Source: Dehalococcoidia bacterium
GTDB taxonomy: Bacteria; Chloroflexota; Dehalococcoidia; UBA2979
Direction: 5' to 3'
Length of the DNA stretch: 64,000 bases
NCBI GenBank assembly: GCA_964291495.2
Contig: OZ219868.1
Location: forward strand, 32,001 to 96,000
The first letter of the stretch is position 1, and each line of letters starts with the position of its first letter. The notes beneath the pieces were generated by a model that did no database searches, was not told the origin of the DNA, and was given only the letters and a program-made list of their open reading frames with translations. Below are positions 24,187 to 62,580 of this stretch, in pieces. Both the position numbers and the translations under genes were made by a program.

Positions 24187-24196
24187 CGCGAAGATG

Positions 24197-42904: not shown

Positions 42905-42959
42905 GGTGCTCTCCTCGCAAGCCCTCGCGGGGCTCGGAACTGCGGTCGCGCGGCGTCGG

Positions 42960-44513: not shown

Positions 44514-45203
44514 ATGCAAGGATTTGCGCCGGTGACATTGGATGCCATCTTCCAGCTTCTCGCGACCGCTCAGTTCGGCGCCTACGTCATGTCGCTCGAT
44601 CAGAAGATCATCTTCTGGAATCAGGCCGCCGAGCGGATCCTCGGCTTCCCGCGCGACCAGGTGATCGGTCGCCGCTGCTACGAGGTGGTGACGGGGCTGA
44701 GCCCCGGGGGCTTCACGCCCGAGTGCCTGCTCGGCTGCCCGTCGCTCCGCTCACTGCGAGGCGGTGATATCCCGAGTGCGTTCACCATGCTGATGCTGTG
44801 CGAGTCCGGCGAGCGCAAGGCAGTTTCGCTCACGCCGATGGTGATCGCCGCTCCCGGCGAGGACACGCCGTTCCTGGTACACCTCTTCGACGAGCCCGCC
44901 GAGGACGAAGGAGCCGACCAGGCGGCCGATTCACTGCGGAGCGAGTTGCGTGAGCAGGGCGCAGCCATCGTGTCGGACCAAGCGCCGGCGACCTCGACTC
45001 CGTCTGATCTCGGCAGACTGACCCAGCGAGAGCTCGAGGTTCTGCGCCTGGTAGCCGCGGGCTGGGGCACGCATCGGATCGCCGAGGCGTTGAGCATCAG
45101 TCCGCATACCGTGCGCAACCACGTGCGCCACTTCCGCGGGAAGCTGAACGCGACGACGAAGCTCGATGCAGTCGTCACGGCGATCCGCCTCGGGATCCTG
45201 TAG
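44514..45203 (+). CDS. PAS-domain LuxR-family transcriptional regulator
   Basis: IIFWNQAAERILGF..DQVIGR.CY PAS motif; C-terminal LTQRELEVL...IAEALSISPHTVRNH LuxR HTH. Confidence 0.92.
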   Translation: MQGFAPVTLDAIFQLLATAQFGAYVMSLDQKIIFWNQAAERILGFPRDQVIGRRCYEVVTGLSPGGFTPECLLGCPSLRSLRGGDIPSAFTMLMLCESGERKAVSLTPMVIAAPGEDTPFLVHLFDEPAEDEGADQAADSLRSELREQGAAIVSDQAPATSTPSDLGRLTQRELEVLRLVAAGWGTHRIAEALSISPHTVRNHVRHFRGKLNATTKLDAVVTAIRLGIL

Positions 45204-45354: not shown

Positions 45355-47838
45355 ATGAGTAGGGTTCTCGCCAGGCTGAGCTGGCTGATCACCGTTCGCC
45401 CGTACCTCACGATCCTCGTGCTCTTCATCATCACCGTCGTGCTGGCCGCGGGAGCAGGGCGGCGCGCCCCGGTCGTGGAGGGCGCTGCCCTGGCCTTCCT
45501 GCCCCCGGGGAACGCCGTCGCCAATGCGATCGAGGAGATCGACACGCACTTCGGGGAGTCGAGCGACGTCGGCGTCGTCACGCTGATCTTCCGTGGGGAC
45601 GCACTCACTCCCGAGGGGCTCGCGCAGATGGACGGCCTGATCGGTCGCATCGCCGGCGATCCGGGCGTGGGGGAGCTGCTGGCGCACGGCGACCCGATCA
45701 TCGCGCCCACCCTGGTCATCAATGCCGTGCTCCAACGAGATGGCCTCGCGGCGGTCACGCAGGCGGAGATCGACGCCGCCCGCGCTGTCCCCGAGATCGG
45801 CGGGGCGCTCGACGCGATGACCGGAACCGACACCGACGGTACGCCGGTCGCGATAGCCACGATCCGCCTGATCAACACCGGGGACGAGCGAGTAAAGGAG
45901 GCCGAACGGCGGATCAACGAGCTGGCGATCGCGGACGAGGGCCCACTGCGCGTGAGCAGCGTCTCGCCGATCGTGGTCGAGGATGAGTACCGCAAGGCCA
46001 CCGAGGAGGGCATGGCGCCCCTGATCGGCCTGGCGCTGCTCCTGATCGCCGCACTGATCCTGGTCTTCCTCCGCACGCTTTCGGACCTGCTGCTCACGCT
46101 GGTCGGCCTGCTCCTCTCGCTGATCTGGGTGATCGGGGCGGAGGGCTGGCTCGGACCGAACGCGCTGGGGCTGATCGGCCCGCCGAGCTCGCTGACCGCA
46201 TTGGTGCCGATCATCGTGATCAGCCTCACCGTGGACTACGCGATCCAGGCCGTCTCGCACTACCGCGAGCAGCGCGCCGAGGGCGAGCCGGTGGTGGCGG
46301 CGGTGCGGATCGGACTGCAACACGTCACCGTCCCGCTGACCCTGGCCGCCGTCACGACGATCGCGAGCCTGCTGGTGAACCTGCTCTCCCCGATCGGGGT
46401 GATGGGCGACTTCGGCATCGTCGCCGGGCTCGGCGTGGGGATGAGCCTGATCGTGATGCTGACGCTGATCCCGGCCGGCCGGGTGATCATCGACCGGCGG
46501 CGCGAGTCGCGCGGCACGTTGACGCAGCCTCGCCAGGTCGCGAACGCCCTGCCCGGCATCGGCCGGCTGGCGGAGCTTCTCGGGACCTCGGTCGCGCGCA
46601 CCCCGGCGCCCTACTTCGTCGTCGTGATCGCGGTGACCATCGGGCTCGGGTACGCAGCCACGGGACTCGAGTCCGGGTTCAATATCCGCGAGATCCTTCC
46701 CCGGGGCGGCAGCGTGCTGAAAGACATGGAGACGCTCGACGCAACCGTCGGCGGCTCAACGGAGATGGCGAGCGTGCTCATCACGGCCGAGGCCACCGAG
46801 ACTCGCACGCTGCTGAACCTCCACGACCTCAGGATTGCCTTCGATGACGAGGCGCGTCGCCCGCCGGCGGCGGCGGGACCGATCCAGGTCTCCTACGAGT
46901 TACTCGTCAGCGACTGGACAGAGGACAGCGGCGCGCTCGGCGACAAGTACGATCCGGAGCTCGCAGCGCTCTTCCAGCAAGCCACCACGGGGGTGCAGCT
47001 CGACCCGATCGTGATGCAGGAGTTCCTCGACAAGCTCACGGCGAGAGATCCCACCCTCGCGCGTGCGCTTGTGAACGATCCGCAGGGCGTCGACGCCATG
47101 CTGGTCCAGTTCCCAGCCTACTCAGGGGATCCCGCAGTCACGAGGGAGCTGCAGGAGGACATCGAGGCGCTCTGGTTCGGCGACGACGGCGCGGTGACGG
47201 CGACCTCGCTGGACATCGTCGCGGTCGCGGTTACCGACGAGATCACCGGCCGGCAGACCCAGGCGATCAGCACGACCATCGCGGTGGCCCTCGGGATTCT
47301 CGCCCTCTTCTTCTGGGTGACGCTGCGCCAGCCGCTCCTGGCGGTTGTCGCGGTGGGGCCGATCGTGCTCGTCCTTATCTGGGTGCTGGGCACGATGGCG
47401 CTGCTCGACATCCCCTACACGCTGGTCACCTCGATCATCACGGCGCTCTCCATCGGGATCGGGGTGGACTACACGATCCACCTGATCCATCGCTACCGCG
47501 AGGAGTTCACCCGTGTGCGCAATCCGGAGCAGGCGGCGATCCGGACGCTGGCCACCACCGGCTCGGCGCTGCTGGGCTCCGCGCTGACGACGGCGCTCGG
47601 GCTCGGCGTGCTGGTGGCCTCTCCGCTGCTCGCGTCCCAGCAGTTCGGCCTCACGGCGGCGATCACGATCGCCTACTCGCTGATCGTGTCGATCCTCGTG
47701 GTGCCGCCCGCCATGACCGTCTGGGGCGCCTACCAGAACATGCGGCTCCGCTCGATGGTGGACCGCATGGCGGAGGAGCTGGACCTGGCGATCGAGGCGG
47801 TGCACCGCCGCCACGAGGAGGAGCAGGGCGCGCCGTAG
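45355..47838 (+). CDS. MMPL/RND family transporter, paralog A
   Basis: 827 aa, two RND repeats, LTVDYAIQ..HYRE and GIGVDYTIH..RYREE, GSALLGSALTTALG. Confidence 0.92.
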   Translation: MSRVLARLSWLITVRPYLTILVLFIITVVLAAGAGRRAPVVEGAALAFLPPGNAVANAIEEIDTHFGESSDVGVVTLIFRGDALTPEGLAQMDGLIGRIAGDPGVGELLAHGDPIIAPTLVINAVLQRDGLAAVTQAEIDAARAVPEIGGALDAMTGTDTDGTPVAIATIRLINTGDERVKEAERRINELAIADEGPLRVSSVSPIVVEDEYRKATEEGMAPLIGLALLLIAALILVFLRTLSDLLLTLVGLLLSLIWVIGAEGWLGPNALGLIGPPSSLTALVPIIVISLTVDYAIQAVSHYREQRAEGEPVVAAVRIGLQHVTVPLTLAAVTTIASLLVNLLSPIGVMGDFGIVAGLGVGMSLIVMLTLIPAGRVIIDRRRESRGTLTQPRQVANALPGIGRLAELLGTSVARTPAPYFVVVIAVTIGLGYAATGLESGFNIREILPRGGSVLKDMETLDATVGGSTEMASVLITAEATETRTLLNLHDLRIAFDDEARRPPAAAGPIQVSYELLVSDWTEDSGALGDKYDPELAALFQQATTGVQLDPIVMQEFLDKLTARDPTLARALVNDPQGVDAMLVQFPAYSGDPAVTRELQEDIEALWFGDDGAVTATSLDIVAVAVTDEITGRQTQAISTTIAVALGILALFFWVTLRQPLLAVVAVGPIVLVLIWVLGTMALLDIPYTLVTSIITALSIGIGVDYTIHLIHRYREEFTRVRNPEQAAIRTLATTGSALLGSALTTALGLGVLVASPLLASQQFGLTAAITIAYSLIVSILVVPPAMTVWGAYQNMRLRSMVDRMAEELDLAIEAVHRRHEEEQGAP

Positions 47839-47891: not shown

Positions 47892-48914
47892 CTAGAGGGG
47901 CTTTCGAGCGAGAAAACAGTAGAGCGGTGTGAAGATGCCTGCCTTGCCGCCCGCGACATAGGCATCCGCAGTCCGATCGAGCAGTCGGACGACTTCCGCG
48001 GAGCCCTCGGGAAACAGCCGCACCACTTCAGCCAGCCCCAGTCCTGCGATCAACGCCTTGCGGCCCCACGGAAGCCTGCGAAGGGCCGTTCCCAGCGTCC
48101 CGTGGCGGCTTTCCATGGGCTGATACCAGGGTGTGGATGGTTCCGTTGTGGCTCCTCGGTCTAGCCCTTCGATAACGTGGAACCCGGCCTCTTCAAGCGC
48201 GTGGTTCACCTCCCTGAACGTCGCGATCTCGTTCAGAGCAATCCCGCGCATCAGGTCCTGCTTGATGGCCTGATGGCGGCGGTCGTTCGGATCGAACGTG
48301 TCCGTAAGGCACATCTCCTGGCCCCAGAAGAGGGCTCCGGGCTTCAGCACGCGGAAGATCTCCTCGAACGCACCTTGCTTGTCCGGCGCGTGGCACGTTG
48401 ACTCGATAGCGTACCCGCCGTCGAAGGTGTCGTCCGCGATTGCGCCCATGTCCATGAAGCTGCAGGCGTGGTAGTCAACCATGTGGTCGAGCCCCGCCTC
48501 GGCGTTCAACCGTTTCGCCCTCTCCAACTGGATCGTGTTGATGTTGATGCCGACTACGCGGACGCCGGACTCGCGGGCGACGCGGCGCATGGGGCCGCCG
48601 ATTCCACAACCGACATCGATAACCGTCATGCCCTGCTGCAGCTCCAGCCGGGAGATCATCAACCGCTGATGCCGGACCTGGGACTCCTCGAGGCTCTCGG
48701 TTGGGGAGAGGGGCGCGAAGTGCAGGGACTCGCTCCAGCCCCACACCATGAATCCGCTGCACAGGTCGTAGTAGTCCTTGACCGTCTCCGTGTGGTCGTA
48801 CCCGGCTTCTGGCGCCGCCCGATCGATCCAGCCGTCGAAGCGCTGGACTCTGTGCCTGACGTCCGTTCCCCGGTACGCATCTCGCAGCTCTCTCGATAGC
48901 CTGCGCAACTGCAC
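47892..48914 (-). CDS. Sterol C-24 methyltransferase-like (ERG6/SMT1 family) SAM-dependent methyltransferase
   Basis: DYYDL, GWSESLHFAP, IDVGCGIGGP, YAIESTCHAP, EIFRVLKPG, PWYQP and C-terminal GGKAGIFTPLYCFLARKP, all SMT-type blocks; GTG start with GGAGGAG RBS. Confidence 0.85.
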   Translation of the reverse strand: MQLRRLSRELRDAYRGTDVRHRVQRFDGWIDRAAPEAGYDHTETVKDYYDLCSGFMVWGWSESLHFAPLSPTESLEESQVRHQRLMISRLELQQGMTVIDVGCGIGGPMRRVARESGVRVVGININTIQLERAKRLNAEAGLDHMVDYHACSFMDMGAIADDTFDGGYAIESTCHAPDKQGAFEEIFRVLKPGALFWGQEMCLTDTFDPNDRRHQAIKQDLMRGIALNEIATFREVNHALEEAGFHVIEGLDRGATTEPSTPWYQPMESRHGTLGTALRRLPWGRKALIAGLGLAEVVRLFPEGSAEVVRLLDRTADAYVAGGKAGIFTPLYCFLARKPL

Positions 48915-49045
48915 GCCCTGGCTCTCCTCCCCGATCGCGCCGATCGTGGTACGCGGTCTGGTCTAGCTGCCTGCTGAGGATGACGCCGATCTCCACGGGG
49001 TCGGGCCGTGGCGGTCGGCGACGGGGATGGTTCGCCGCGTCAGCG

Positions 49046-51091
49046 TTATGAGCTCGCGGCCGGCGCTGTGGGGATCTCGCGCCGCTGCTCGGCGATGTGG
49101 AACTTCAGCTTCTTGCTCACCGAGAGCGACGGGAACGGGTCGATCTTGAGCTTGTAGTTCCTGGGCGCCACCTCGATCGTGAAGTGGTGCGCGAGCAGCA
49201 GCAGGTTGACGGCGAGCTGCAGCTCCATCCAGCGGTTCCCGAGGCAGGTATGCGTACCCAGCCCGAACGGGGCGTACCCGGGGCTGAGGTGTTCGTTGCG
49301 CGGAGGCAGGTAGCGGTCGATGTCGAATGTCCACGGCTCCGGGAAGATGTCGCTCATGTAGTGCGCCGCTGCCTGGGCGATGAAGATCCGTGACCCCTCC
49401 GGGATTTCGTAACCCTCGACCACGCACGCATTCATCACGGTCCGGACGGACATCGGAACGATCGAGTACATGCGCATGGATTCCATGATGAAGCGGCGCG
49501 TCACGTCGATCGAGTCCTCCGTGAAGCCCTCGCGTCCGGGATCGCCGCCATCGAACAGGGCGTCCGCCTCTTCCCGGATCCTGGCGTAGAGCTCGGGCTG
49601 GGACGCCATCGCGTAGAGCGCGAAGCTCAGGCCATCGCCGAGGTAGACGCTGGCGATCAGCGGCGCGGAGAGGACGAAGCGCAGGTTCGACTCCGGGAGG
49701 AACGAAGGGTCGCTCGAGTGCAAGCTGAGCAGGTCGTCCGCGAGATCGCGGGGGCAGCCCGCCCGCTGGGCGGCCGTGTGGACACTCTGGACGCGCTCCA
49801 GCAGCACCTGGATGCTCTTTGCCCGGCGCCGCATTCCCGGGGTCTTGAGCATGAACTTGGGCATGACACCCAGGACGTGCGTGGACAGCGCCCGCGTCTT
49901 GTACTTGACCAGATCGTCCAGGACGTCCTGCGAGTCGACGCTGATCATCAGGGGCGAGATCTGGGAGTTGATCAGCTGCCGGCACATGGACACCGCGGGG
50001 CGAGTGTCTCCAACCTCCCAGGTCGCCATGTGTGACCGGGTGTGGTCGTAGAGATCCTCGAGTTGCCCTTCCAGCCTCGCGCGCGAGTACCCCGGCGCCA
50101 GGGCCTTGCGGAACCGGAAGTGATCGGCGCCGTCCAGCGCGGGCAAGATTCCCGATGCGCCATAGACCTTCTCGAAGTCCTGGAGATAGTCCCGGGCCCT
50201 CAGGTACGTGCGCCCCTGCCGATGCGCCCAGTAGTTCGTCTCCGACCCGGCCAGGACGAGCATGGGCTTCTGGAACGGCGGGTTGAGCTGGTACACGGGC
50301 CCGTACTGTTCGGCGAGATCCGCGAACAGTGCGGGGAGATTGCCGTCGCGAAGATGCCGGTGCAGCGCGAACTTGAGCAGCGGTACCTGGGGAATCGACT
50401 TCGTAAGGCCGGCACGTCCGATCAAGGGGACGTTCATGTTCTGGGTGACTGCCTCGGCGATCGCCCGCCCGATCAGGTCCATCCGGCAGACAAGCTCGAT
50501 GCGCTCCTCCAGCTCGTCGTCGAGCTGGAACATGAAGCGAAACACGTCACAGGTATTGACGAGGGCGACAATGATCACGTCACGAGGGTCGGGGATCTCG
50601 TTGTTGAAGAGCACCCTGCTGATGCGCGTCTTGACGAACTGGGCAGCGGTGCCTTCCCTCTCGCTGCTGAACATCTCGGTCTGCCATGCACGATTCGCAA
50701 GCGTCCAGAAGTCGCCTTCGTGATGCTCCAGGATCTGTCGATCAACCAGGCGCTCAAGCGTCAGGTCGATGATCGACTCTGCACGCGGCGCAAGCCGTTC
50801 GATCCAGTATTGCGCGTTTCGCTGCGTCGTTTCACTTGCAATCTGATCCAGAATGGGATCCAGAACAGGATTGCCGGTTTCCGTCTGGTCCAGAAGGATC
50901 AGGGAGTCCATGTCTGTATCGATACGAGATATGAGCGACAGCTCCGCAAGTGCGGCGCCGACGACGGCGCAGTTCAAGTGCCAGCCTGGTACCTGGTGAA
51001 AGTACCCGCTCTCTTCATTGAGCAGCATCAGGATGAGCTCTTCGGGCAAACTCAGCGCTTGAGTCGTCACGCGGTCGGTAGCGAGAGTCAT
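49046..51091 (-). CDS. GPP34 (GOLPH3/Vps74-like) domain fused to cytochrome P450, paralog A
   Basis: N-terminal SLPEELILMLL...GAALAELS...GNPVLD...WI..L...LERLVDRQIL; C-terminal ESMR (ExxR), FDIDRY, PFGLGTHTCLG heme ligand. Confidence 0.85.
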   Translation of the reverse strand: MTLATDRVTTQALSLPEELILMLLNEESGYFHQVPGWHLNCAVVGAALAELSLISRIDTDMDSLILLDQTETGNPVLDPILDQIASETTQRNAQYWIERLAPRAESIIDLTLERLVDRQILEHHEGDFWTLANRAWQTEMFSSEREGTAAQFVKTRISRVLFNNEIPDPRDVIIVALVNTCDVFRFMFQLDDELEERIELVCRMDLIGRAIAEAVTQNMNVPLIGRAGLTKSIPQVPLLKFALHRHLRDGNLPALFADLAEQYGPVYQLNPPFQKPMLVLAGSETNYWAHRQGRTYLRARDYLQDFEKVYGASGILPALDGADHFRFRKALAPGYSRARLEGQLEDLYDHTRSHMATWEVGDTRPAVSMCRQLINSQISPLMISVDSQDVLDDLVKYKTRALSTHVLGVMPKFMLKTPGMRRRAKSIQVLLERVQSVHTAAQRAGCPRDLADDLLSLHSSDPSFLPESNLRFVLSAPLIASVYLGDGLSFALYAMASQPELYARIREEADALFDGGDPGREGFTEDSIDVTRRFIMESMRMYSIVPMSVRTVMNACVVEGYEIPEGSRIFIAQAAAHYMSDIFPEPWTFDIDRYLPPRNEHLSPGYAPFGLGTHTCLGNRWMELQLAVNLLLLAHHFTIEVAPRNYKLKIDPFPSLSVSKKLKFHIAEQRREIPTAPAASS

Positions 51092-51246
51092 CCATCTTCC
51101 TCCCTGCCCGTCATCAAAATAGTGTAGGTCACGCGCTCAGGCCTCGCAAGGCGACATCCGTGAGACGTCCGGCCAGCCGTGCGGGGAACGCCCCGCTCCC
51201 GTATCCTGACTCCGTGCAGCGGACGACAACAGCGGGAAGGCAGGCC

Positions 51247-52629
51247 ATGGCAACGGGCCGGGGAGCGAGAGCGCCACGGCGAATTGCCATTGTCGGCGGG
51301 GGTATTTCCGGGTTGGCCGCGGCGTGGGCGCTGCACCATCACCCGGACCGCTTTGACTTCCGCCTCTTCGAGGCTCGGGACCAGCTTGGCGGCAACGCGA
51401 TCACGGCTGATATGCCGCAAGGTGACGGCAATTCGATCCCGTTCGACATTTCTGTTACCGCCTGTATCCCATCTGTATACGACCATATTGTCCTGCTCAT
51501 GGAGCAGTTTGGCATCGAGCTGCTCGACACAAGATTCAGCTACAGTGTGAAGTACGCGGGCCAGGTATACGCGCACGACTTCGACTCTGATATCAGGGAA
51601 GAACTGCGATCTGAGATTGCGAGATTCCAACGACTCTTAAGGCGGCTGCATTGGTTCGGAGCCCTCACCCGGTCCCGGTCGAAGCTCCTGAACGCGCTCA
51701 ATCCGTTCAACTACATCAGCATGGGAACGGTGCTCAATCTGGGAGGGTTTTCCGCCGACTTCCGCTACAAGGTGTTGAAGCCGATGTTCGTCAACTTCCT
51801 GATGGCGACGAACGTGTTCGATATGCCTGCGGCGCTCTTCACGAGGTACCTCGAGTTCTTCGATATCGAGACCGCCACGCCGATGCAGACGTGGGACCAG
51901 GGCACGCGACGCATCTACGAGCAGCTGTCGGCCGGCTTCCTCGACAAGATCTCCCTGAGCCGCCCGGTCCGGAAGGTGTATCGCCGCGCCGCCGGAGTCG
52001 TCGTCGAGGACGAGGACGGCGCGCGGGAGGCGTTCGACGATGTGGTCTTCGCGTGCAACGCGAACCAGACGCTGATGATGCTCGACAGGCCTACGATGCT
52101 CGAGCGCCAGCTCCTCTCCTCGATTCGCTACGACAGCGAGCTGCACAACCACGCGATCGTGCACTCGGACTCCTCGGTCCTGCCTGACAACGAGGTCAAG
52201 CCGCTGACGACGCGCAGTAATCACATCGAGCAGTACGGGGCGCGGCCGGACAACTACGAGATCACCTACATCATGCACAACCAGCAGCCGTGGGCGAACA
52301 AGTCGGACAAGCCCTGCCTGGTCACCTACAACCCGATCAGCCGCATCGACGAGGAGAAGATCGTCAAGCGAACGTGGTTCCAGCACATCGTCCACGACGT
52401 GCGCCACGTCGCCCTGACCGTGAACCTCTTCCGCTTCATCCAGGGGAAGCGACGAACCTGGCACTGCGGCGCCCACACGCTGATCAACAGCCAGGAGACG
52501 TGCTTCGTCACCGGGCTCGCCGCGGCGAGGCAACTCGGCGCCGACTACCCCTTCGAGGATCCTGCGGCGCGGCAGTCATTCAACTACTACGGCAGCATCC
52601 TCTACGGCTCGCGATTCAGGAAGGCGTAG
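51247..52629 (+). CDS. FAD-dependent oxidoreductase (COG2907/amine-oxidase-like)
   Basis: ATG at 51247; RIAIVGGGISGLAAAWAL, FEARDQLGGNA, FDDVVFAC, HSDSSVLP, IQGKRRTWHCGA. Confidence 0.8.
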   Translation: MATGRGARAPRRIAIVGGGISGLAAAWALHHHPDRFDFRLFEARDQLGGNAITADMPQGDGNSIPFDISVTACIPSVYDHIVLLMEQFGIELLDTRFSYSVKYAGQVYAHDFDSDIREELRSEIARFQRLLRRLHWFGALTRSRSKLLNALNPFNYISMGTVLNLGGFSADFRYKVLKPMFVNFLMATNVFDMPAALFTRYLEFFDIETATPMQTWDQGTRRIYEQLSAGFLDKISLSRPVRKVYRRAAGVVVEDEDGAREAFDDVVFACNANQTLMMLDRPTMLERQLLSSIRYDSELHNHAIVHSDSSVLPDNEVKPLTTRSNHIEQYGARPDNYEITYIMHNQQPWANKSDKPCLVTYNPISRIDEEKIVKRTWFQHIVHDVRHVALTVNLFRFIQGKRRTWHCGAHTLINSQETCFVTGLAAARQLGADYPFEDPAARQSFNYYGSILYGSRFRKA

Positions 52630-52778
52630 CGCCCGAGGGCCCTCGTCACAGGGGTCCGGCGGACCCCGCGGCGCGCACCGTTCGGCGTGCGACGAGCGGG
52701 TGACTCTCGTATTCTGGATCTGTGCCCGCTTTGCGGGGAGGCCGTCAACCCGGTATCCGGGGTGAGGAGGGCCGAGCG

Positions 52779-53885
52779 ATGCCAGTCCGACACGGCGAGC
52801 CCGCGATTGTCTCGCTGCCCCCGTTCCCCGAGGGCTGGTACTTCGTCACGAGCCGCAAGGCCCTGCAGCAGGCCGGGCTCATCCAGAAGACCTGGATGGG
52901 CGAGGACATCGTCGTCTGGACTGACGAGGAAGGCCGCGCCTGCGTCGCCGAGGCCATCTGCCCGCACCTGGGCTCCGATCTGGGACCCGACGCGGGCGGG
53001 CGCGTCTGCGCCGGCCGGCTCGTCTGCCCCTTCCATGGCTTCGAGTTCGATACGACCGGCCAGTGCGTCGACACTCCCTACGCTCCCCCGCCCAGGTCCG
53101 CCAGGCTGCGCGTCTTCGAGACACGAGAGATCGCCGGCCTGATCTTCGGCTGGTGGGGGATCGGAGGTCGGGAGCCTCAATGGAGCCTCCCCGAGGAGAC
53201 GCCGGACCAGACCGGCTGGAGCGAGGTGTACGTCCAGACGCTCCGCTTCCCCGGCCACCCCCAGGAGATCGCGGAGAACTCGGTGGACCTGGCCCACCTC
53301 CGCTACATCCACGGCTACCACAGCGTGAACCGCGTCGAACCGGCCTCGGTAGACGGGCACCACATGGTGAGCCGGTTCGACTTCACGAGTCGCCGCAAGG
53401 TCGCGAAGGTGGCGACCCTCACCTTCGAGCTCTCCGCCAACACCGACATCTACGGGCTGGGCTACTCGTTCGTCGACATCCGGGAGCACACGATCGGCAT
53501 GGATCTGCGTCTGTGGATCCTGGCGACGCCCGTTGACGGCACGCTCGTCGACATGACGCTGGCCTCGCAGGTGCGGGAGATCAGCAACCCGAAGCGACTG
53601 TTCGTCGGCCTGGGCTTCCTCCCGCGCAAGCTCCGCGCCCCGCTCATGAACAGGTTCATGGCGTCCCGGCAGCGTCAGGACGTGCTGGACGACGTCGTGA
53701 TCTGGAGCCGCAAGCAGTTCGTGTCGCCTCCGCGCCTCAACCGCTCCGACGGCGAGATCATGGCCTATCGGGCGTACTGCGCCCAGTTCTACCCCGACCC
53801 GACCGCCGACGAGAGCGCCGCTGCGACGCACATGGCGCCGCCCCGGGAAGTCCCGAGAGCCGCGGCCGTCTCGCTGCGCGACTAG
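52779..53885 (+). CDS. Rieske non-heme iron oxygenase, Neverland/DAF-36/KshA-like
   Basis: ATG at 52779 after GAGGAGG; PEGWY, CPHLG...CPFHG Rieske motif, ENSVDLAHLRYIH iron site, D..IW..K....P.L...DG.I..YR....QFY tail. Confidence 0.85.
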   Translation: MPVRHGEPAIVSLPPFPEGWYFVTSRKALQQAGLIQKTWMGEDIVVWTDEEGRACVAEAICPHLGSDLGPDAGGRVCAGRLVCPFHGFEFDTTGQCVDTPYAPPPRSARLRVFETREIAGLIFGWWGIGGREPQWSLPEETPDQTGWSEVYVQTLRFPGHPQEIAENSVDLAHLRYIHGYHSVNRVEPASVDGHHMVSRFDFTSRRKVAKVATLTFELSANTDIYGLGYSFVDIREHTIGMDLRLWILATPVDGTLVDMTLASQVREISNPKRLFVGLGFLPRKLRAPLMNRFMASRQRQDVLDDVVIWSRKQFVSPPRLNRSDGEIMAYRAYCAQFYPDPTADESAAATHMAPPREVPRAAAVSLRD

Positions 53886-55228
53886 GCGGGCGCCTCGAGT
53901 GGCGCCCGCTTCGGCGGCGGCTCACGTGAGGCGAGGATAGCGAGGGCGCCGCCGAGGTAGGCGGCGACGAAGGCCGCAAATACGCCCTCGTACGACCCGA
54001 CCGCGTCGAAGTACAGCCCACCGAGGACGGGACCCAGCGCACCGAAGACGATCGTGAACGGCGCCGCGACGCCTCGCACCGCCCCGATGTGCACGCGCCC
54101 GAAGTACTTCGCCCAGATGAACTCACTGAGCGGTACCGTTCCACCGAACCCGAAGCCCCAGAAGAAGAACGCGACGAACATCAGCGGCAGCGCTCCCAGC
54201 TGCGCCGCGACGAGCATGGTGACGACGCCCGTCGCCGAGATCGACAGCGCCGTCGCCCCGAGGTAGCGGACGTGCACCCGCTGCAGGAAGTAACCCCACA
54301 CGAACTTCGAGCTGAGGTTGGCGCCGCCGTTGACCGCGATCGCCAGCGCGGCCTCGGTGCGCGTGAAGCCGTTGTCCGTCATGAACGGAATGGCGTGCAC
54401 CAGCACCGCCAACAGCGCCATGGTGTTCAGCCCGTAGCCGACGATCAGCAGCCAGATCGCCGGCGTGCGCAGCGCCTCGCCGCGCGTGTAGGAGTTCGCG
54501 GCGTCCTGCGCCTGAGCCTCGGCCGCCGTGCCGCCGCCCCTCGCCCGCGCGCCGGGCTCGACGCCGTCGGGTCGAAGACCGTGGTCCTCGGGCCGCCGCC
54601 GCATCACGAGCGCGACCGGCACGACGATCGCGAACATGAACAGCGCGAGGATCGCGTAGGCGTCGCGCCACCCGGTCGAGTCGACAATGCGCGTCATCGT
54701 CAGCGGCATGATCAGCCCCGCGAGCGAGATGCCCGACGAGCCGAGCGCGATCGCCCAGCCGCGCCGCAGCACGAACCACTTCGAGAGCGTCGCGTTCACG
54801 ACGAGCGGTCCGACCATCGAGAATCCGGCGCCGCCGGCGATCATCGAGAGCGCGACGAACTGCCACAGCTCCTCGACACGCGACATCGCGAAGAACGAGA
54901 CGGCGTAGACGCAGGCGCCGGCAAGCATCAGCGGCCGCGCCCCGTAGCGGTCGATGAACGGCCCGGCCACGAACCCGGCGACGCCGCCAAGCAGGAAGGC
55001 GGACGAGCCGCCGAGGGTGTACTCGGCCGCGGTCCAGCCGAGTTCCTCGGTCATCGGGCGGAGGAAGACGCCGGCGATGGCCCCGCCGGCGCCCATCGCC
55101 GCGAACTGGGCGACGATCGCCCCGGCGACGATGTACCAGCCCCAGAAGACGCGGCGAGGCCTCGCGGCGGGTAGTGCCCTCGAGCGCGGCTCGTCGTCGT
55201 CCACGGGCGCGGCGGGCTCGCGACTCAT
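53882..55228 (-). CDS. MFS transporter (OFA/MCT-like)
   Basis: FWGWYIVA, GPFIDRYGAR motif A, KWFVLRRG.A, 12 TM pattern; host-like very high GC. Confidence 0.9.
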   Translation of the reverse strand: MSREPAAPVDDDEPRSRALPAARPRRVFWGWYIVAGAIVAQFAAMGAGGAIAGVFLRPMTEELGWTAAEYTLGGSSAFLLGGVAGFVAGPFIDRYGARPLMLAGACVYAVSFFAMSRVEELWQFVALSMIAGGAGFSMVGPLVVNATLSKWFVLRRGWAIALGSSGISLAGLIMPLTMTRIVDSTGWRDAYAILALFMFAIVVPVALVMRRRPEDHGLRPDGVEPGARARGGGTAAEAQAQDAANSYTRGEALRTPAIWLLIVGYGLNTMALLAVLVHAIPFMTDNGFTRTEAALAIAVNGGANLSSKFVWGYFLQRVHVRYLGATALSISATGVVTMLVAAQLGALPLMFVAFFFWGFGFGGTVPLSEFIWAKYFGRVHIGAVRGVAAPFTIVFGALGPVLGGLYFDAVGSYEGVFAAFVAAYLGGALAILASREPPPKRAPLEAPA

Positions 55229-55993
55229 GGCGGCAGCATAGCGGCAGTGGAGGCTCGGTCAGGCGCGCAGCGCGGTCCAGCTCCGCCATGGACCGGCAGC
55301 GCGGTTCAATGCCAGAACCTGGGTCGTGTCCGGGAGTACGGCCGGCCAAGGAGGACCGTACTGCGAGCTTCACAGCATGTACAGAGGGCTGCTCATCGTC
55401 ACGGACGGTCGCGAATCTGAGGGCGGGTGTGCGGGTCGAGGTGCCGATCATCGAGGCGGTCGAGGGCTCAGATCTTGTTACCAATGAACAGACACCGGTT
55501 TCCGCGTTCAGAAGCGACAAGATCGAGCGCGTGCCGTTGGTCGTGACCGTCCCGCTCACGCGCCGGAAGACCCGACAACTGGCTACGGCGCCCTCGCCTG
55601 ATCGTCCCAGGGGGTCTCGTCCTGAGTGCCGCAGCGCCGTCCCGGATCTCAGTGTGTAGTAGGAGAAGCGCCTACTAGTGGGGTGCGGTCTCGGGACTGA
55701 TGAGACCGCGGCGTTCCTCGCCCCGGGTGCGGATCCAGGTGACCAGACACATGAGGCGGTCACGGGGCAGTCGCCTGCTGTCGCGGTAGTCGCGGGCACG
55801 ATTAGGGCCGAGTGAGACATTGAGCAGTAATCGGTACAAATTGACCGCTGCATTGGACGGAAACACAACAACCAATGGTTATGATCCACACGCTATATCA
55901 CTGATTCGCATCCTAGGCAGGGATGGGAGCCGACGTTCGGACGGGCGGTACCACAACTTCACGGGAGCCGATGTGTTCCAGGAGGAGGATTCC

Positions 55994-57982
55994 GTGAGCC
56001 ACCTGAGCCTGGCCGATAATCTGTGCCTGCTGATGCTCGATGACGCTTCCGGGAGCCTCTGCCGCCTCGAGGGGCGAACCCGAGACTTCGGCTTCGCGGC
56101 CGCGGTCCTGTTGGAGTTGGAGCAGCATGAACGCATCCAGACCCAGCCGGGCCTGCTGTCCGTCATCGATGCAACACCGCTCGGTGACCCCGTCGCGGAT
56201 CCGGTGCTCGCTGAGGTCGCGGACAGTGATCACTCGTCTCCGCAGGACTGGGTGCGACGTATTGGCTCTCGGTCCGGCTCGGAGATAGCCGCCGCCACCC
56301 TGGACCGGCTCGTAGCACGCGGAGTCCTTGAGCAGATACCGGGCGACCTGTTCTTCCTCCCGTCCGAGGTGGCGCGTTCACAGCGCTACCCGGGGGCAGT
56401 AGGCGGCGCTGACGAGGTCCGCATCCGGGTGATGCGGGCACTCTTTGGCGGCGACGCCCCGGATACATCCGATGCGGACCTGATAGGGCTCGCCGATTCC
56501 TGCGGTGTCTTCGGCGTCATCCTGAGCGCTGGCGAGTTCGACAAGGTGAGGGATCGGATCGGAGAGATTGCGCCACGCAACCCGCTGTGCCGAGCGGTTG
56601 AGCAGGCGGCGGCCGACGACCTGGCCGCGCAAGGGCCCTCGCGCGGGGCGTTCCCGCCGATACCCGAGGTCCGGGGGCTTCCGATCCTCGGCAACGCGGT
56701 GGGCATGGCCGGCAACCTGCAGCCATTCCTCGACAAGCAGTACAGGCGGCATGGTCCAGTTTTTGGTCTTCGAGTGCCGGGGAGACGCATGGTCGTCATG
56801 GCGGGCAAGGAAGCTGTTGCTTTCATGAAGGAGCATTCCCAGACGCACCTTCGCAGCAACCGGTCGTTCACTGACTTTCTGGACGCGATGGAGACAGATC
56901 GCTCGATCATCTCAATGGACGGTCACGATCACATCAAGCTCCGGCGCATCGCTCACGCGGGCTACAACGAGATGACCGTCGCAGACAACCTGTCAACGGT
57001 CATCGAGGTCACCCGCCGCGCCGTCGCCTCCTGGCCCACTGGACGACCGCTTTCGGTGTACCCCGCAATGCAGGAAATCGTGATTCCGCAACTCGGCGTT
57101 GTCGCAACCGGACTTGCGCCCACCGAATTCGTGGACGATCTCCGGTACTGGTTCGACTCGCTCGTGATTGCAATGCGTCGCGACCGTCCGAAGTTCATGG
57201 TCGAGTACCGGCTGCGCAAGGTGCGTCCCAGAATCAGGGAACTGTTCCACCGGGCCGTGGAGTTGCACGACCCCGAATTGCGCGATGGACGCCCTCGCGA
57301 CCTGCTCGATGAGTTCATGGACCTGCGGAGGCGGGATCCGCAGTTCCTTCCGGAGACCGACCTGGCCTCTTCCGTGGTGGCTCCATACATCCAGGCATTG
57401 GACCCCGTCGCCGGGACCTTGGGGTTCGCCCTGTTGCGCCTGTTGGCAGAGCCGCAGCATGCCGAGGCTCTCCAGGAGGAGGCCGATGAAGCGTTTGCCG
57501 CCGGGCTGGCGGATGCGGATGCCATTAGCGGACTGGAGAAGACGTACGCCTTCCTTGCCGAGGTCATGCGCTGCCACACGATCACGCCGGTGATGCTGCG
57601 CACGGCGTGCAACGCGTTCGAGTTCGAGGGCCACTGGGTGCCCGCCGGCACTTCGCTGTGGATGGCTCCGGGGGTGGTCCACAGCGACCCCGATCATTAT
57701 CCGAACCCCGAGCGATTCGAACCTGAGCGGCATTTGCCCCCACGCCTGGAATCCACGGAGCAGGGCGCGTTCGTCCCCTTCGGGGTCGGTCCTCACTCCT
57801 GCCTCGGAGAGTCGTTCGCCAAGGATCAGATGGCGGTGACGCTTGCGACCCTGCTGCACTACGCGGAGTTCGACCGCTATCCGAGTCGAGACAACCGCAT
57901 GAGGATCACTTCCTACCCTTCACTCCGTCCGCACCGCAAGAGCCGCGTTCAGGTGAAGCGTCAGCGGTCCGCCCAGCGGTGA
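55994..57982 (+). CDS. GPP34 domain fused to cytochrome P450, paralog B
   Basis: GTG at 55994 after GGAGGAGG; SLADNLCLLMLDD...AAVLLELE...GDPVAD...LDRLVARGVL; EVMR, PERFEPER, PFGVGPHSCLG. Confidence 0.85.
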   Translation: MSHLSLADNLCLLMLDDASGSLCRLEGRTRDFGFAAAVLLELEQHERIQTQPGLLSVIDATPLGDPVADPVLAEVADSDHSSPQDWVRRIGSRSGSEIAAATLDRLVARGVLEQIPGDLFFLPSEVARSQRYPGAVGGADEVRIRVMRALFGGDAPDTSDADLIGLADSCGVFGVILSAGEFDKVRDRIGEIAPRNPLCRAVEQAAADDLAAQGPSRGAFPPIPEVRGLPILGNAVGMAGNLQPFLDKQYRRHGPVFGLRVPGRRMVVMAGKEAVAFMKEHSQTHLRSNRSFTDFLDAMETDRSIISMDGHDHIKLRRIAHAGYNEMTVADNLSTVIEVTRRAVASWPTGRPLSVYPAMQEIVIPQLGVVATGLAPTEFVDDLRYWFDSLVIAMRRDRPKFMVEYRLRKVRPRIRELFHRAVELHDPELRDGRPRDLLDEFMDLRRRDPQFLPETDLASSVVAPYIQALDPVAGTLGFALLRLLAEPQHAEALQEEADEAFAAGLADADAISGLEKTYAFLAEVMRCHTITPVMLRTACNAFEFEGHWVPAGTSLWMAPGVVHSDPDHYPNPERFEPERHLPPRLESTEQGAFVPFGVGPHSCLGESFAKDQMAVTLATLLHYAEFDRYPSRDNRMRITSYPSLRPHRKSRVQVKRQRSAQR

Positions 57983-58184
57983 AGCCTGCCGGCGTAGCCC
58001 GCGGTGACCACGGAAGCCAGGGTTGGCCGCCCGCAGGGTCCGAGGTCCGCATGGCACTCGCCTGTTGGTGCGGGGCACGTCTCTCCCGTAGTCCGTGTAT
58101 CCGCGTCGTCGCGTGGTGGTCCGGTGGGCGGGTGGCGGCTGCACGGTGTCGAGCGGCCGCGCCGCTCACACGGAGTGGCGTGCG

Positions 58185-60809
58185 ATGAACCAGGCGCTCT
58201 CCCGTCTGACCTGGCTGGTCACGGCTCGCCCCTGGGTCACGATCTTCGTCCTCCTGCTGACTACGGTGGTGCTCGCTGCGGGGGCGGAACGGCGCGCGCC
58301 TGTGGTGGAGGGCGCAGTGCTCGCGTTCCTCCCACCCGGACACCCCATTGCGGAGGCGTCGAACGAAATCGACGAGCTCTTTGGGGATTCGGGCGAAGTG
58401 ACGGTTGTCACGATCATCTTCCGCGGGAATGCGTTCACGCCCGAAGGGCTCGCCCAGATGGATGCGCTCACCTGGGGCGTCCTTGCCGACGCACAGGTGG
58501 AAGCAGTGCTGGCGCCCGGTGAGTCAGTGATCGCGCCCTCTTTGCTCGTCCGGGAGGCGCTCCAGGTAGACAGCTTCGAGTCGGTCACGCAGGCGCAGAT
58601 CAACTCCGCCCTCGGTTCACCCGAGATCGAAGAGGTGCTGGCAGCGATGACCGCATCCGACGCAGACGGCAACCCTGTGGCGATCGCCACGGTGCGGCTG
58701 AGCGACGCGGACGAGCGGAAGGTCGCGGATGCGGAGAGGCGGATCAATGAGCTGACGGCCGGAAACGTGGGCCCGTTACGTGTGAGCAGCGTGTCGCCCG
58801 TTGTTGTCGAGGCCGAGTACAGAGACGCTACCGAGTCGGGGATGCTGCCCCTGATCGCGCTCGCGCTTGGGTTGGTCGCATCCCTGATCCTGCTGTTTCT
58901 GCGTACGCTCGCGGACCTCTTGCTCACGCTTCTGGGGCTATTCGTCGCCCTCATCTGGGTCGTCGGCGCGGAGGGATGGCTTGGGCCACATGGTCTTGGC
59001 TGGATCGGCCCGCCGAGCTCGCACAGCGCGATGGTCCCGATCATCGTGATCAGCCTCACCGTGGACTATGCCATCCAGACTGTCTCGAGCTATCGCGAGC
59101 AGCGAACCGCGGGGTTGCCGGTGGCCGATGCGATCGGAACGGGACTGGGACACGTCGCGATTCCACTGATGCTGGCTGCCGTGACGACGATCGCGAGCCT
59201 GCTGACGAATCTGTTCTCGCCCATCGGCGCGGTGGGCGACTTCGGCATCGTCGCGGGCCTCGGGGTTGGCCTGAGCCTGATCGTGATACTGACCCTGCTC
59301 CCAGCGGGACGGATGATCATCGACCGGCGGCGCGAGCAGCGCGCCACGCTCGCTCCGCCCCGTCCGGTCTCGAGTGCGCTGCCGGGCGTCAGGCGCGCTG
59401 CGGAGTTGCTGGGAACGTCTGTCACGCGCCGGCCGGCCCCGTTCATCCTTGTCGTGCTCGCGATCACGGTCGGACTCGGGTTCGCGGCCGCGCGGCTCGA
59501 GACCGGATTCGACATCCGCGACATCCTGCCAAGGGGCGGGACCGTGCTGGAGGACATCGAGACCCTCGAAGCCTTCGGCGGATCCACGGAGATGGCGAGC
59601 GTACTCGTGAAGGCGGAGGCGACTGACACCCGCACGTACCTGAACCTGAACGATCTCAGGGTTGCCTTCGAAGATGATCGGCTCCGGCCACAGGCAGCTG
59701 CAGGGCCCATCCACACCTCATACGAGCTGCTTGTGCACGACTGGACGCACGACAGCGGCGAAGAGGGCGACAAGTACGATGCCGGGCTCGCAGAGCTCTT
59801 CCGCCACGCTTCGGTCGGCCTGAGGCTGAATCCGGTGCTGCTCCAGGAGCTTCTCGACAGGCTGAAGGCGAAGGAGCCCGCCCTCGTCAGCGTACTTGCC
59901 GACAATCCCGATGGAATCGATTCGTTGCTGTTCCAGTTCCCGACCTTCTCAGGCGATCCCGAAGCAACAAGGGCGCTGCAGCAGGACATCGAAGCGCTGT
60001 GGCGAGAAAAGGACGTGAGCGTGACGGTTACGTCGCTGGACGTCGTTTCCGTCGCAGTCACGGATGAGATCACGCGCGGTCAGACGGCGGCGATCAGCAC
60101 GACGATCGCGGTAGCCATCGGCGTCCTCGCCATCTTCTTCTGGGTGACACTGCGGCAACCCGCGCTTGCATTCATTGCGGTGGTGCCGGTGGTGCTCGCA
60201 CTCATCTGCGTGCTGGGAACGATGGCGCTCCTGGACATTCCCTACAACCTGATCACATCCATCATCACCGCGCTCTCCATCGGGATCGGCGTTGACTACA
60301 CCATCCACATCATCCATCGCTACCGCGAGGAGTTCGCCCGCTCGCGCAGCCCGGAGCAGGCGGCGGTCAGCACGCTTGCAACCATCGGCTCGGCGCTGTT
60401 GGGCTCGGCACTGACGACGGCGCTCGGCCTCGGGGTGCTGGTGTTTTCGCCGCTGCTCGCTTCCCAACAATTCGGCATCACGGCGGCGATCACCATCGCG
60501 TACTCGCTGGTCATCTCCATCCTGCTCGTTCCGCCCGCGATGACGGTCTGGGGGTCGTACCAGAACATGCGGTTGCGCTCGATGGTGGAGCGACGTGGGC
60601 AGAGCTCGATGTGGCCATTGAGGATGCGTACCAGCGCCACGGGGAGAGAGCGGGCCTGGCCTAGGATGTTCCTGCCCGCCTGGTCCGGTACGAATGCGCT
60701 GAGGGGTGGGGAGCTCTTCGAAGGTCTGTCGGCGTCTCCGCTGTCCGCAGTCGGCGGTCGCGCGCCGGTCTGGTTGGTCAGGCTGATGTGCGCGGCGAGG
60801 TGCGGATGA
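58185..60809 (+). CDS. MMPL/RND family transporter, paralog B, with apparent frameshift near the 3' end (homologous end at 60664)
   Basis: ATG at 58185; collinear with paralog A to YQNMRLRSMV; the homologous tail AELDVAIEDAYQRH continues in the -1 frame to TAG at 60662-60664. Confidence 0.88.
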   Translation: MNQALSRLTWLVTARPWVTIFVLLLTTVVLAAGAERRAPVVEGAVLAFLPPGHPIAEASNEIDELFGDSGEVTVVTIIFRGNAFTPEGLAQMDALTWGVLADAQVEAVLAPGESVIAPSLLVREALQVDSFESVTQAQINSALGSPEIEEVLAAMTASDADGNPVAIATVRLSDADERKVADAERRINELTAGNVGPLRVSSVSPVVVEAEYRDATESGMLPLIALALGLVASLILLFLRTLADLLLTLLGLFVALIWVVGAEGWLGPHGLGWIGPPSSHSAMVPIIVISLTVDYAIQTVSSYREQRTAGLPVADAIGTGLGHVAIPLMLAAVTTIASLLTNLFSPIGAVGDFGIVAGLGVGLSLIVILTLLPAGRMIIDRRREQRATLAPPRPVSSALPGVRRAAELLGTSVTRRPAPFILVVLAITVGLGFAAARLETGFDIRDILPRGGTVLEDIETLEAFGGSTEMASVLVKAEATDTRTYLNLNDLRVAFEDDRLRPQAAAGPIHTSYELLVHDWTHDSGEEGDKYDAGLAELFRHASVGLRLNPVLLQELLDRLKAKEPALVSVLADNPDGIDSLLFQFPTFSGDPEATRALQQDIEALWREKDVSVTVTSLDVVSVAVTDEITRGQTAAISTTIAVAIGVLAIFFWVTLRQPALAFIAVVPVVLALICVLGTMALLDIPYNLITSIITALSIGIGVDYTIHIIHRYREEFARSRSPEQAAVSTLATIGSALLGSALTTALGLGVLVFSPLLASQQFGITAAITIAYSLVISILLVPPAMTVWGSYQNMRLRSMVERRGQSSMWPLRMRTSATGRERAWPRMFLPAWSGTNALRGGELFEGLSASPLSAVGGRAPVWLVRLMCAARCG

Positions 60810-62313: not shown

Positions 62314-62580
62314 CACGCTATCCCGTTCGCCGGAGATGGCCGGCGCCACTGCGGGAGGCGAAAGCCCGGCGCGTCCAGCGATGCGAATCTGTGATCCTGC
62401 AATGGATCCTAGCTACCGGTTGTTCTGGTTTCGTCCAGCGAGGACCATCAGTTGTATAAAATACTGTGCAATGTCTTCAGCGAAGGGTATCCTCCCTCGG
62501 GGTGACTGCTACTGAGGGCGCCGGCTCCCATAACAGCCGCATATGCCCGCTGCTGAGGTCGAGATTCCGGGAAGGCGACT

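Follow-up and report, generated by a model that had tools for sequence, protein, structure and literature searches.

The window analysed here is a stretch of 64,000 nucleotides from contig OZ219868.1 (positions 32,001 to 96,000 of the forward strand; NCBI GenBank assembly GCA_964291495.2) of a Dehalococcoidia bacterium. It holds two genes, fusion 1 and fusion 2, each encoding an N-terminal GPP34 (GOLPH3-like) domain, a short linker and a cytochrome P450; a first-pass annotation made from the sequence had claimed both, and Pfam and alignment confirm them. Judged by sequence, both belong to a described but uncharacterised family, GPP34_L, which was in print by January 2025 (PMC11706023), so the novelty that the first-pass annotation implied for the architecture has not survived. 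New here is the conserved sterol-gene neighbourhood of the GPP34-P450 genes.

Two diverged fusion proteins

In fusion 1 the GPP34 domain (PF05719) spans residues 15-216 and matches positions 1-199 of the 201-position profile (E 9e-31, 107.9 bits against a cut-off of 29.1), and the p450 domain (PF00067) spans residues 244-660 (E 3e-38). The GPP34 domain of fusion 2, numbered from position 55820, lies at residues 64-264 and matches profile positions 1-198 of 201 (E 3e-30, 106.1 bits against the cut-off of 29.1); its p450 match has an E-value of 4e-51. The frame of fusion 2 is open from a TTG at 55820 and the database gene call begins at 55973 (669 amino acids, P0003), while the N-termini of homologues (alignment A2) favour the GTG start at 55994 that is used in Table 1. 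The two proteins align end to end with 30% identity (197/667, E 1e-89), and because this identity extends over their whole length we regard them as old paralogues.

A full-length model of fusion 1 (predicted local distance difference test score, pLDDT, 84.8; predicted template modelling score, pTM, 0.74) has two well-folded domains, and residues 220-228 of the linker between them are disordered (pLDDT below 50). A predicted complex of its GPP34 part (residues 1-226) with its P450 part (232-681), built from alignment A1, scored 0.00 with the mark at 0.32, which is evidence neither way. On inspection of the sequences, neither fusion has a signal peptide, a hydrophobic N-terminus or a membrane-helix-like stretch; the hydropathy peak, a 19-residue Kyte-Doolittle mean of 1.7, falls within the core helix of GPP34.

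Both Pfam domains occur together in 47 further proteins of the fusion-2 family (P0004-P0048 and P0050; 28-84% identity), and searching species-representative genomes with fusion 1 yielded at least 552 confirmed relatives, of which 80 loci were kept (67-95% identity). Given these numbers, and given that the 80 loci come from independent assemblies that include whole-chromosome records, we rejected a gene-fusion or assembly artefact. The earlier view that the architecture is old and maintained is upheld by the relatives, by the 80 independent loci and by residues that are invariant in an alignment of 48 fusions.

Fold and lipid pocket of the GPP34 domain

The N-terminal domain is, as first proposed, a genuine domain of the GPP34/GOLPH3 fold by Pfam, profile search and structural comparison alike. 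A 20-row profile found human GOLPH3 (3kn1, E 9e-11) and yeast Vps74 (2zii, E 1e-10) in the PDB; the profile was needed, since a single-sequence phmmer search returned only Vps74 with an E-value of 0.39. When the AlphaFold model of the domain (pLDDT 84.3, pTM 0.82) was compared with the PDB by Foldseek, the best eight matches were all GOLPH3 or Vps74 (E 1.9e-8 to 2.4e-5, TMq at most 0.70) and the next had an E-value of 0.055. The likeness to GOLPH3/Vps74 (PF05719; 3kn1, 9qpq, 2zii, 2zih) is that of a homologous fold, with a beta-hairpin behind a long central helix.

The two groups differ in that GOLPH3/Vps74 keep a pocket for phosphatidylinositol 4-phosphate (PI4P) together with a segment of about 10 residues, located ahead of R171 in GOLPH3, that is absent from the fusion GPP34 domain, whereas the fusions are bacterial and enzyme-linked. 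The pocket of GOLPH3 consists of W81, R90, R171 and R174, and Wood et al. made W81A/R90A and R171A/R174A variants as tests of it (Wood 2009, PMC2806290). In a profile alignment that includes the full-length GOLPH3 chain, these residues face P35, V44, E105 and I108 of fusion 1. Across the 48 fusions of alignment A1 the W81 column never holds tryptophan (0/48), and the remaining three hold lysine or arginine in 0/48, 0/48 and 3/48 rows; a tryptophan stands two columns beyond the W81 column in 17 of the 48. The family-invariant residues of the domain are R56, W96 and R156, with C181 kept in 47 of 48. To judge from these alignments, the GPP34 domain of the fusions is no PI4P reader of the GOLPH3 kind, and because the pocket residues are unconserved the eukaryotic mechanism is not simply transferable to any membrane binding by GPP34.

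An E-class P450 with an altered I helix

The P450 had been called complete, and in part this stands: both the haem-ligand loop and the ExxR motif can be recognised, with C616, G610, G612, H614, E537 and R540 invariant in the 48 fusions. The part that does not stand concerns the acid-alcohol pair of the I helix, which is absent from the fusion-1 clade and altered in fusion 2. The fusion-2 clade is variable at this site (D-T, D-P or D-Q, with D-P in fusion 2 itself), and a third clade of seven rows (P0040-P0048) retains the canonical AG-x-D-T.

Searched against solved P450s, a 48-row family profile matched Methylococcus CYP51 best (2e-56), followed by CYP184A1 (9e-50), other CYP51s (1e-46 to 1e-49) and then CYP120. 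Profile and fold place the domain among the E-class P450s, with sterol demethylases as its closest kin in sequence. It is not itself a CYP51: as that family is usually defined, its I-helix and B' segments face other residues in the fusions, and identity is about 20%. The resemblance to CYP51, especially the Methylococcus capsulatus CYP51-ferredoxin protein (6mcw, 6mi0, 7jj1), lies in the best profile match, the E-class fold (TMt 0.82) and the sterol context; the difference lies in the low identity, in the AGHHTS region of the I helix, which faces another motif, and in the B' region, which is not conserved.

GPP34 and the linker stop just ahead of the conserved N-terminal Pro/Gly motif of the P450 (alignment to CYP51). 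In microsomal P450s the membrane anchor is located before this motif. The fusions share with P450 BM3 (CYP102) and with CYP51-ferredoxin the covalent link of a P450 to a helper domain, but in those proteins the helper is a redox partner, C-terminal in the case of the Methylococcus ferredoxin, whereas GPP34 is not a redox partner and sits N-terminal, in the anchor position.

A conserved neighbourhood of sterol genes

The genes around the fusions occupy 44.5-62.3 kb of the window (Table 1). Downstream of fusion 1 lies a predicted sterol methyltransferase with Sterol_MT_C (PF08498, E 7e-17), Methyltransf_11 (PF08241, E 2e-17) and CMAS domains. The solved structure nearest to the flavin adenine dinucleotide (FAD) oxidoreductase is LkcE (6f7l, E 3e-31). 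For the Rieske protein it is KshA (4qdc, E 1e-22), and the SdmA model is matched much more weakly (E 1e-8; 34 bits, where the cut-off is 600). The Rieske protein has both domains of KshA, the oxygenase of the KshAB 3-ketosteroid 9-alpha-hydroxylase, and the two transporters of the resistance-nodulation-division (RND) superfamily share with HpnN and BstA the HAE3/HpnN architecture and a sterol-sensing signature; the difference from KshAB, HpnN and BstA is that the proteins of the window score far under the equivalog cut-offs, and no KshB-type reductase is part of the conserved set.

Table 1. Features of the window; positions count from its first nucleotide
Feature	Position	Strand	Length (amino acids)	Remarks
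Fusion 1	49046..51091	-	681	Both domains by Pfam; alignment A1; model
Fusion 1, GPP34	~50435-51055	-		
Fusion 1, linker	~50399-50434	-		Disordered
Fusion 1, P450	49049-50398	-		
Fusion 1, stop	49046-49048	-		
Fusion 2	55994..57982	+	662	From GTG 55994; alternative starts 55973, 55820
Fusion 2, GPP34	~56009-56611	+		
Fusion 2, P450	~56633-57979	+		
PAS-LuxR (GerE) regulator	44514..45203	+		Pfam; upstream of first RND
RND/MMPL transporter (HAE3, HpnN-like)	45355..47838	+	827	MMPL 9e-43, Sterol-sensing 2e-11, Patched 1e-9
Sterol C-24 methyltransferase-like	47892..48914	-	340	131 bp downstream of fusion 1, same strand
FAD amine-oxidase-family oxidoreductase	51160..52629	+	489	Amino_oxidase E 3e-18; 68 bp from fusion 1, divergent
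Rieske [2Fe-2S] oxygenase, KshA-type catalytic domain	52722..53885	+	387	Rieske E 1e-18, KshA_C E 9e-26
Major facilitator superfamily (MFS) transporter	53882..55228	-	448	MFS_1 1e-44; separates the halves of the island
Second RND/MMPL transporter	58095..60809	+	904	MMPL 5e-43, Sterol-sensing 8e-16, Patched 2e-12; 112 bp downstream of fusion 2, same strand
Stand-alone cytochrome P450, CYP170/CYP184-like	60889..62349	-	486	p450 E 9e-83; 3dbg E 1e-68, 7wzl E 1e-62
Sensor histidine kinase (GAF-PAS-HisKA-HATPase)	62581-63999			Directly after the stand-alone P450; runs off the end of the window
Beta-oxidation-like stretches	4189-5679, 16892-18085, 21880-25483, 29886-30665, 36164-36955, 42482-44141			FAD_binding_2 dehydrogenase, MaoC-like hydratase, two family-III CoA transferases, CoA_trans subunit, enoyl-CoA hydratase, ChsH2-like DUF35/OB protein with thiolase-like partner

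By record title the loci belong to these phyla: 61 Chloroflexota, six Nitrospirota, five Latescibacterota and two each of Verrucomicrobiota, Gemmatimonadota and Binatota. When these loci were searched by tblastn with the genes of the window, the methyltransferase was found in 58/80 (median gap to the fusion 53.5 bp), the Rieske oxygenase in 64/80, the RND transporter in 51/80 and the FAD oxidoreductase in 49/80, the last being the most conserved of the set (median identity 82%); all counts are lower bounds because several loci are only 4-6 kb long. No partner is farther than 7.2 kb from the fusion, and gene order varies. An unbiased clustering of G+C-filtered open reading frames from 83 loci returned the same five families as the only ones to reach at least 50 loci (82, 60, 56, 52 and 50). 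The families that followed were an MFS family distinct from that of the window (20 loci), an LppX/LprAFG-like lipoprotein (14), AcrB (12), short-chain dehydrogenases/reductases (SDR, 10), an enolase-superfamily protein (9), an ERG4/ERG24 sterol reductase (8), an ATP-binding cassette (ABC) ATPase (8) and a LigXa-type Rieske protein (6). No cyclase family was present among the identity-checked families shared by at least five of the 83 loci.

Other neighbours in the window are seldom found beside the fusion elsewhere: the regulator in 2/80 loci, homologues of the MFS transporter in 3/80 (the closest loci only) and the stand-alone P450 in 4/80 (about 25% identity). Elsewhere the window has many genes resembling lipid or steroid side-chain beta-oxidation. 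These, too, rarely accompany the fusion (thiolase-like 6/80, ChsH2-like 5/80, hydratase 1/80).

Close relatives of fusion 2 are rarer, at three loci from Binatia and Thermodesulfobacteriota. A fusion-1-type gene follows 0.2-5 kb downstream in all three, and the two-fusion arrangement is thus conserved across phyla; the adjacency of fusion 2 to the second RND gene was not seen in these three loci.

The genome of the window (3.08 Mb in 8 contigs, estimated 93.7% complete) contains three GPP34 domains, those of the two fusions and one stand-alone copy, together with two SQS_PSY genes. It has one Sterol_MT_C and one KshA_C domain, and both are in the island. An ERG4/ERG24-family sterol reductase (E 3e-34) lies on another contig than the island (C1:9112-10251), between two SDR genes.

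Co-occurrence was assessed in a single sample of 151 genomes of the same class. GPP34 is present in 29/151 genomes and 12/110 genera, with taxonomic families all-or-none; within the window's own family it is found only in the same-genus genome and in 0/5 genomes of other genera. Sterol_MT_C occurs in 20/151 genomes, of which 20/20 carry GPP34, and in 0/122 genomes without GPP34. Among the 18 genomes whose GPP34 frame is long or split-long, 16 have the methyltransferase; the long form was read as GPP34-P450 from a frame length of at least 507 amino acids, and two split forms are included.

Spread among phyla and habitat

The fusions are about 68-70% identical across phyla. In a FastTree phylogeny of 80 rows (78 locus sequences, fusion 1 and fusion 2, with two loci excluded for stops or short matches), the sequences from outside the Chloroflexota fall inside the Chloroflexota diversity on short internal branches, and each phylum forms mostly one clade. 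This pattern is consistent with a small number of transfers between phyla and vertical descent afterwards, and with a single long outgroup and no bootstrap the direction of transfer is not readable from the tree. Within the window, where G+C ranges over 0.63-0.735, the 44-64 kb region is lower (0.63-0.68) than most of 0-44 kb (0.67-0.735). The cross-phylum identity, the tree, this lower G+C and the patchy occurrence within the class (12 of 110 genera) all speak for horizontal spread.

Contigs from three runs labelled sponge metagenome, each of a different study, cover 30/30 bins of positions 47892-53885 at 90% identity or more, and those of one run labelled coral reef metagenome cover 27/30 bins. 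In all four runs, positions 51692-52491, in the middle of the FAD oxidoreductase gene, have 10- to 100-fold more summed contig depth than their neighbours; this peak fits an unusually conserved gene borne by many members of the community.

Relation to published work

The paper that described GPP34_L (Microbiome 2025;13:4, PMC11706023) reports in its text that 656 of 663 long GPP34 proteins couple GPP34 to a P450, that this group is monophyletic, expressed and present in many phyla of sponge symbionts, that GPP34 was transcribed in 45 of 107 A. aerophoba metagenome-assembled genomes, and that GPP34 occurs in fusions with Rieske and ABC-ATPase domains as well. Fusions 1 and 2 are members of this group: domains and their order are the same, genomes carry several divergent copies, and the hosts are alike (Dehalococcoidia, Nitrospirota, Latescibacterota and others of sponge-type metagenomes). 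Where we differ is in the reading. The authors propose that GPP34 is secreted as an effector which would bind PI4P of the host and stop phagosomes from maturing. The words "sterol", "steroid", "methyltransferase", "signal peptide" and "binding site" are absent from the main text of their paper, which does not mention the conserved neighbours that place the fusions in a sterol context here. The exclusivity to sponge symbionts that its text describes is slightly widened by the coral reef run.

Searches of an open-access literature collection found neither a sterol link nor a biochemical characterisation of GPP34-P450 in print. The first-pass annotation had left room for the architecture being already characterised; it has been described, and its biochemistry has not been characterised. 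This large family marks sponge-type symbionts across phyla, and the secreted PI4P effector is the only published idea of its function.

The nearest published parallel for the neighbourhood is the finding of Brown et al. (2023, PMC10070321) that methyltransferases of sponge symbionts cluster with homologues of sterol-synthesis genes. Those clusters are alike in pairing a Sterol_MT_C methyltransferase with a Rieske oxygenase in uncultured sponge-associated bacteria. The main text names sdmA/sdmB homologues and makes no mention of P450, Rieske, transporter or Golgi; unlike in the clusters that it describes, the island has a Rieske protein nearer to KshA than to SdmA, and its genome yielded no cyclase.

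A probable sterol-tailoring island

We think it somewhat probable that the fusions are cytoplasmic, membrane-peripheral sterol P450s of a horizontally spread island that tailors host sterols, and that GPP34 replaces a membrane anchor. The fused P450s would oxidise, or desaturate, sterols. The core of the island would consist of the GPP34-P450, the sterol C-24 methyltransferase, the KshA-like Rieske protein, the FAD oxidoreductase and the RND transporter with its sterol-sensing domain, to which some genomes add an ERG4/ERG24 reductase, an SDR, an LppX/LprG-like lipid-carrier lipoprotein or further transporters. Compact and spread horizontally among bacteria of sponge-type holobionts, such an island would both tailor and move sterols. 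GPP34 may tether the P450 to the cytoplasmic membrane, on its inner side, or to the RND transporter; this placement, rather than a eukaryotic PI4P pocket, would give the P450 access to membrane-embedded sterol. Its position in the polypeptide, the membrane association of its fold family, its alternative fusion partners and the lack of any other anchor all point to such a role. The substrates would most likely be host or dietary sterols, because no squalene or oxidosqualene cyclase was found.

The sterol flavour of the predicted proteins supports this reading: Sterol_MT_C and KshA_C domains, sterol-sensing and Patched signatures in the RNDs, ERG4/ERG24 reductases and the CYP51 profile match all share it. 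The first-pass annotation had guessed that GPP34 brings a sterol or lipid to the P450, and the conserved neighbours (methyltransferase, Rieske protein, RND and ERG4/ERG24) lend strong contextual support to a sterol as what the P450 acts on.

Several observations weigh against the sterol-tailoring reading. It is the neighbour genes only that suggest a sterol substrate, and among these the FAD oxidoreductase is not known to act on sterols, the solved structures nearest to it being those of LkcE, the lankacidin amine oxidase, and of a fatty-acid isomerase; the RND matches HpnN/HAE3 models better than it does BstA, a sterol transporter to which its match is weak, which leaves room for hopanoid-like or other lipids. 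The P450 itself does not keep the I-helix and B' regions of CYP51 (alignment to 7jj1), and Foldseek does not favour CYP51, ranking CYP102-type P450s, P450DA, CYP184A1 and CYP51 alike (E 4e-17 to 1e-16), so that the label "CYP51-like" derives from sequence-profile E-values alone. All 18 rows of the fusion-1 clade have a one-residue deletion and no I-helix acid-alcohol pair (D/E-T), and members of this clade may consequently not be ordinary oxygen-activating monooxygenases or hydroxylases. The clustering of 83 loci placed no ferredoxin or reductase gene in the conserved set. No squalene-hopene or oxidosqualene cyclase (PF13243, PF13249) was found in the genome, a negative limited by its 93.7% completeness. 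The genomes of the co-occurrence sample are kin rather than independent, and the 20 with the methyltransferase amount to 8 genera. Finally, the stand-alone GPP34 genes of 18 related genomes have no island neighbours within 6 kb, so the sterol link is seen for the fused form only.

A more specific version of the sterol-tailoring reading, which we consider doubtful, makes GPP34 a sterol- or lipid-interface module and assigns side-chain chemistry on host sterol to the non-canonical P450. Host sterol would be taken at the cytoplasmic membrane, possibly straight from the sterol-sensing RND, and desaturation, for example, would create the double bond that the adjacent methyltransferase needs. If this were true, a mobile island common to many symbiont phyla would turn ordinary host sterols into the unusual alkylated sterols of sponges, including precursors of the 24-isopropyl and 26-methyl steranes that are used as "sponge" biomarkers, and, by extension, the GOLPH3 fold would have had lipid handling rather than PI4P reading as its ancestral function.

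Two questions are touched by the sterol-tailoring reading: what bacterial GPP34 does, and who makes the side-chain-alkylated sterols of sponges, whose fossil steranes serve as the earliest animal biomarkers. The neighbourhood, the lost PI4P pocket and the lack of secretion signals together point to a hypothesis that can be tested at the bench, as a defined set of five genes could be reconstituted with published in-vitro methyltransferase assays (PMC10070321).

Alternative explanations

Steroid catabolism is an unlikely alternative in which host sterols serve as carbon, the P450 starts side-chain oxidation in the manner of CYP125 or CYP142, and the KshA-like protein opens ring B. The KshA_C domain and the KshA structure nearest to the Rieske protein fit such a pathway, as do the ChsH2-like DUF35/OB, thiolase-like, enoyl-CoA hydratase, CoA transferase, MaoC-like and FAD_binding_2 genes upstream. 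These upstream genes, however, are not conserved with the fusion, and the P450 domain is closest to the CYP51 type, with no CYP125 or CYP142 among the 60 matches listed. Sterol methyltransferases and ERG4/ERG24 reductases are moreover tailoring rather than degradative enzymes.

We give a similarly low probability to the possibility that the P450 acts on another membrane lipid (hopanoid-like, carotenoid, long-chain or polyketide) and that GPP34 is an adaptor docking it to the RND transporter or to another enzyme. An adaptor role would echo the binding of enzyme tails by GOLPH3, and the fusion of GPP34 to Rieske and ABC-ATPase domains (PMC11706023) as well as to STAS suggests a general adaptor. 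The best scores of the RNDs against HAE3/HpnN models, the two SQS_PSY genes and the resemblance of the FAD oxidoreductase to LkcE and a fatty-acid isomerase likewise suit a lipid other than sterol. Against this stands the almost perfect co-occurrence of the methyltransferase with the fusion; to our knowledge, the families of Sterol_MT_C methyltransferases and ERG4/ERG24 reductases are confined to sterols.

De novo bacterial sterol synthesis, with the fused P450 as the 14-alpha-demethylase (the function of CYP51), after the model of sterol-producing bacteria that have methyltransferase clusters (PMC10070321), appears improbable. Such synthesis would be in keeping with the bacterial CYP51 that heads the matches of the family profile, with the ERG4/ERG24-family reductase and SQS_PSY genes of the genome and with the sponge-symbiont clusters of PMC10070321, but the 93.7%-complete genome yielded no domain of a squalene-hopene or oxidosqualene cyclase, and no cyclase was among the identity-checked families shared by at least five of the 83 loci; the I-helix and B' regions of CYP51 are not retained, and KshA is a far closer match to the Rieske protein than SdmA is.

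The most improbable of these explanations is the secreted PI4P effector of PMC11706023, extended to the long forms: its domain is homologous to the PI4P effector GOLPH3 and the family is expressed, enriched in sponge-type holobionts and patchy among close relatives, but the PI4P pocket is unconserved, the N-terminus of neither fusion is hydrophobic or shows a signal peptide, a haem P450 with its need for electron donors would be unlikely secreted cargo, the conserved neighbours are sterol enzymes and transporters rather than secretion genes, and the main text of that paper, free of "signal peptide", "binding site", "sterol" and "methyltransferase", puts forward a model that suits the long GPP34 forms poorly.

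Other forms of GPP34

The profile of the N-terminal domain matches 4907 representative clusters (50% identity) at E at most 0.001 and 502 at E at most 1e-30, and full-length fusions of at least 630 amino acids make up 32 of its best 150 matches. Six representatives among the same 150 have a STAS (PF01740)-GPP34 architecture of about 340-370 amino acids, four of them confirmed by Pfam (P0152, P0162, P0164 and P0196) and two recognised by length and offset (P0201 and P0204); STAS is not named as a partner in the text of PMC11706023, where P450, Rieske and PotA partners are given. P0060 (444 amino acids) is a tandem GPP34-GPP34 protein and P0061 (872 amino acids) a GPP34-GPP34-P450. P0039 (649 amino acids), the only member of its cluster, joins GPP34 and the N-terminal half of a P450 to the C-terminal half of a sulfotransferase; with a single member we rejected it as a true architecture and regard it as a probable deletion or assembly chimera, which hints that a sulfotransferase gene can adjoin the fusion gene.

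The stand-alone GPP34 of the genome (C5:29287-30069, 260 amino acids) is convergent with an MMPL gene (732 amino acids) and lies 4.2 kb from a P450 gene (C5:34261-35160). A general pairing of GPP34 with MMPL/RND or with P450 genes was dropped as an idea, as the MMPL and the P450 of this arrangement were each found in 0/20 loci of related genomes, viewed over 6 kb on each side. Eighteen of these loci hold stand-alone GPP34 genes and two hold split long forms. In one of the latter (L088, G131:C1) the fusion gene is present as two adjacent pieces, and in the other (L089, G103:C1) a partial fusion piece lies beside a short GPP34. At a further locus (G060:C35) a single TAG interrupts the fusion match. 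These split or interrupted fusion genes are possibly pseudogenes or sequencing frameshifts.

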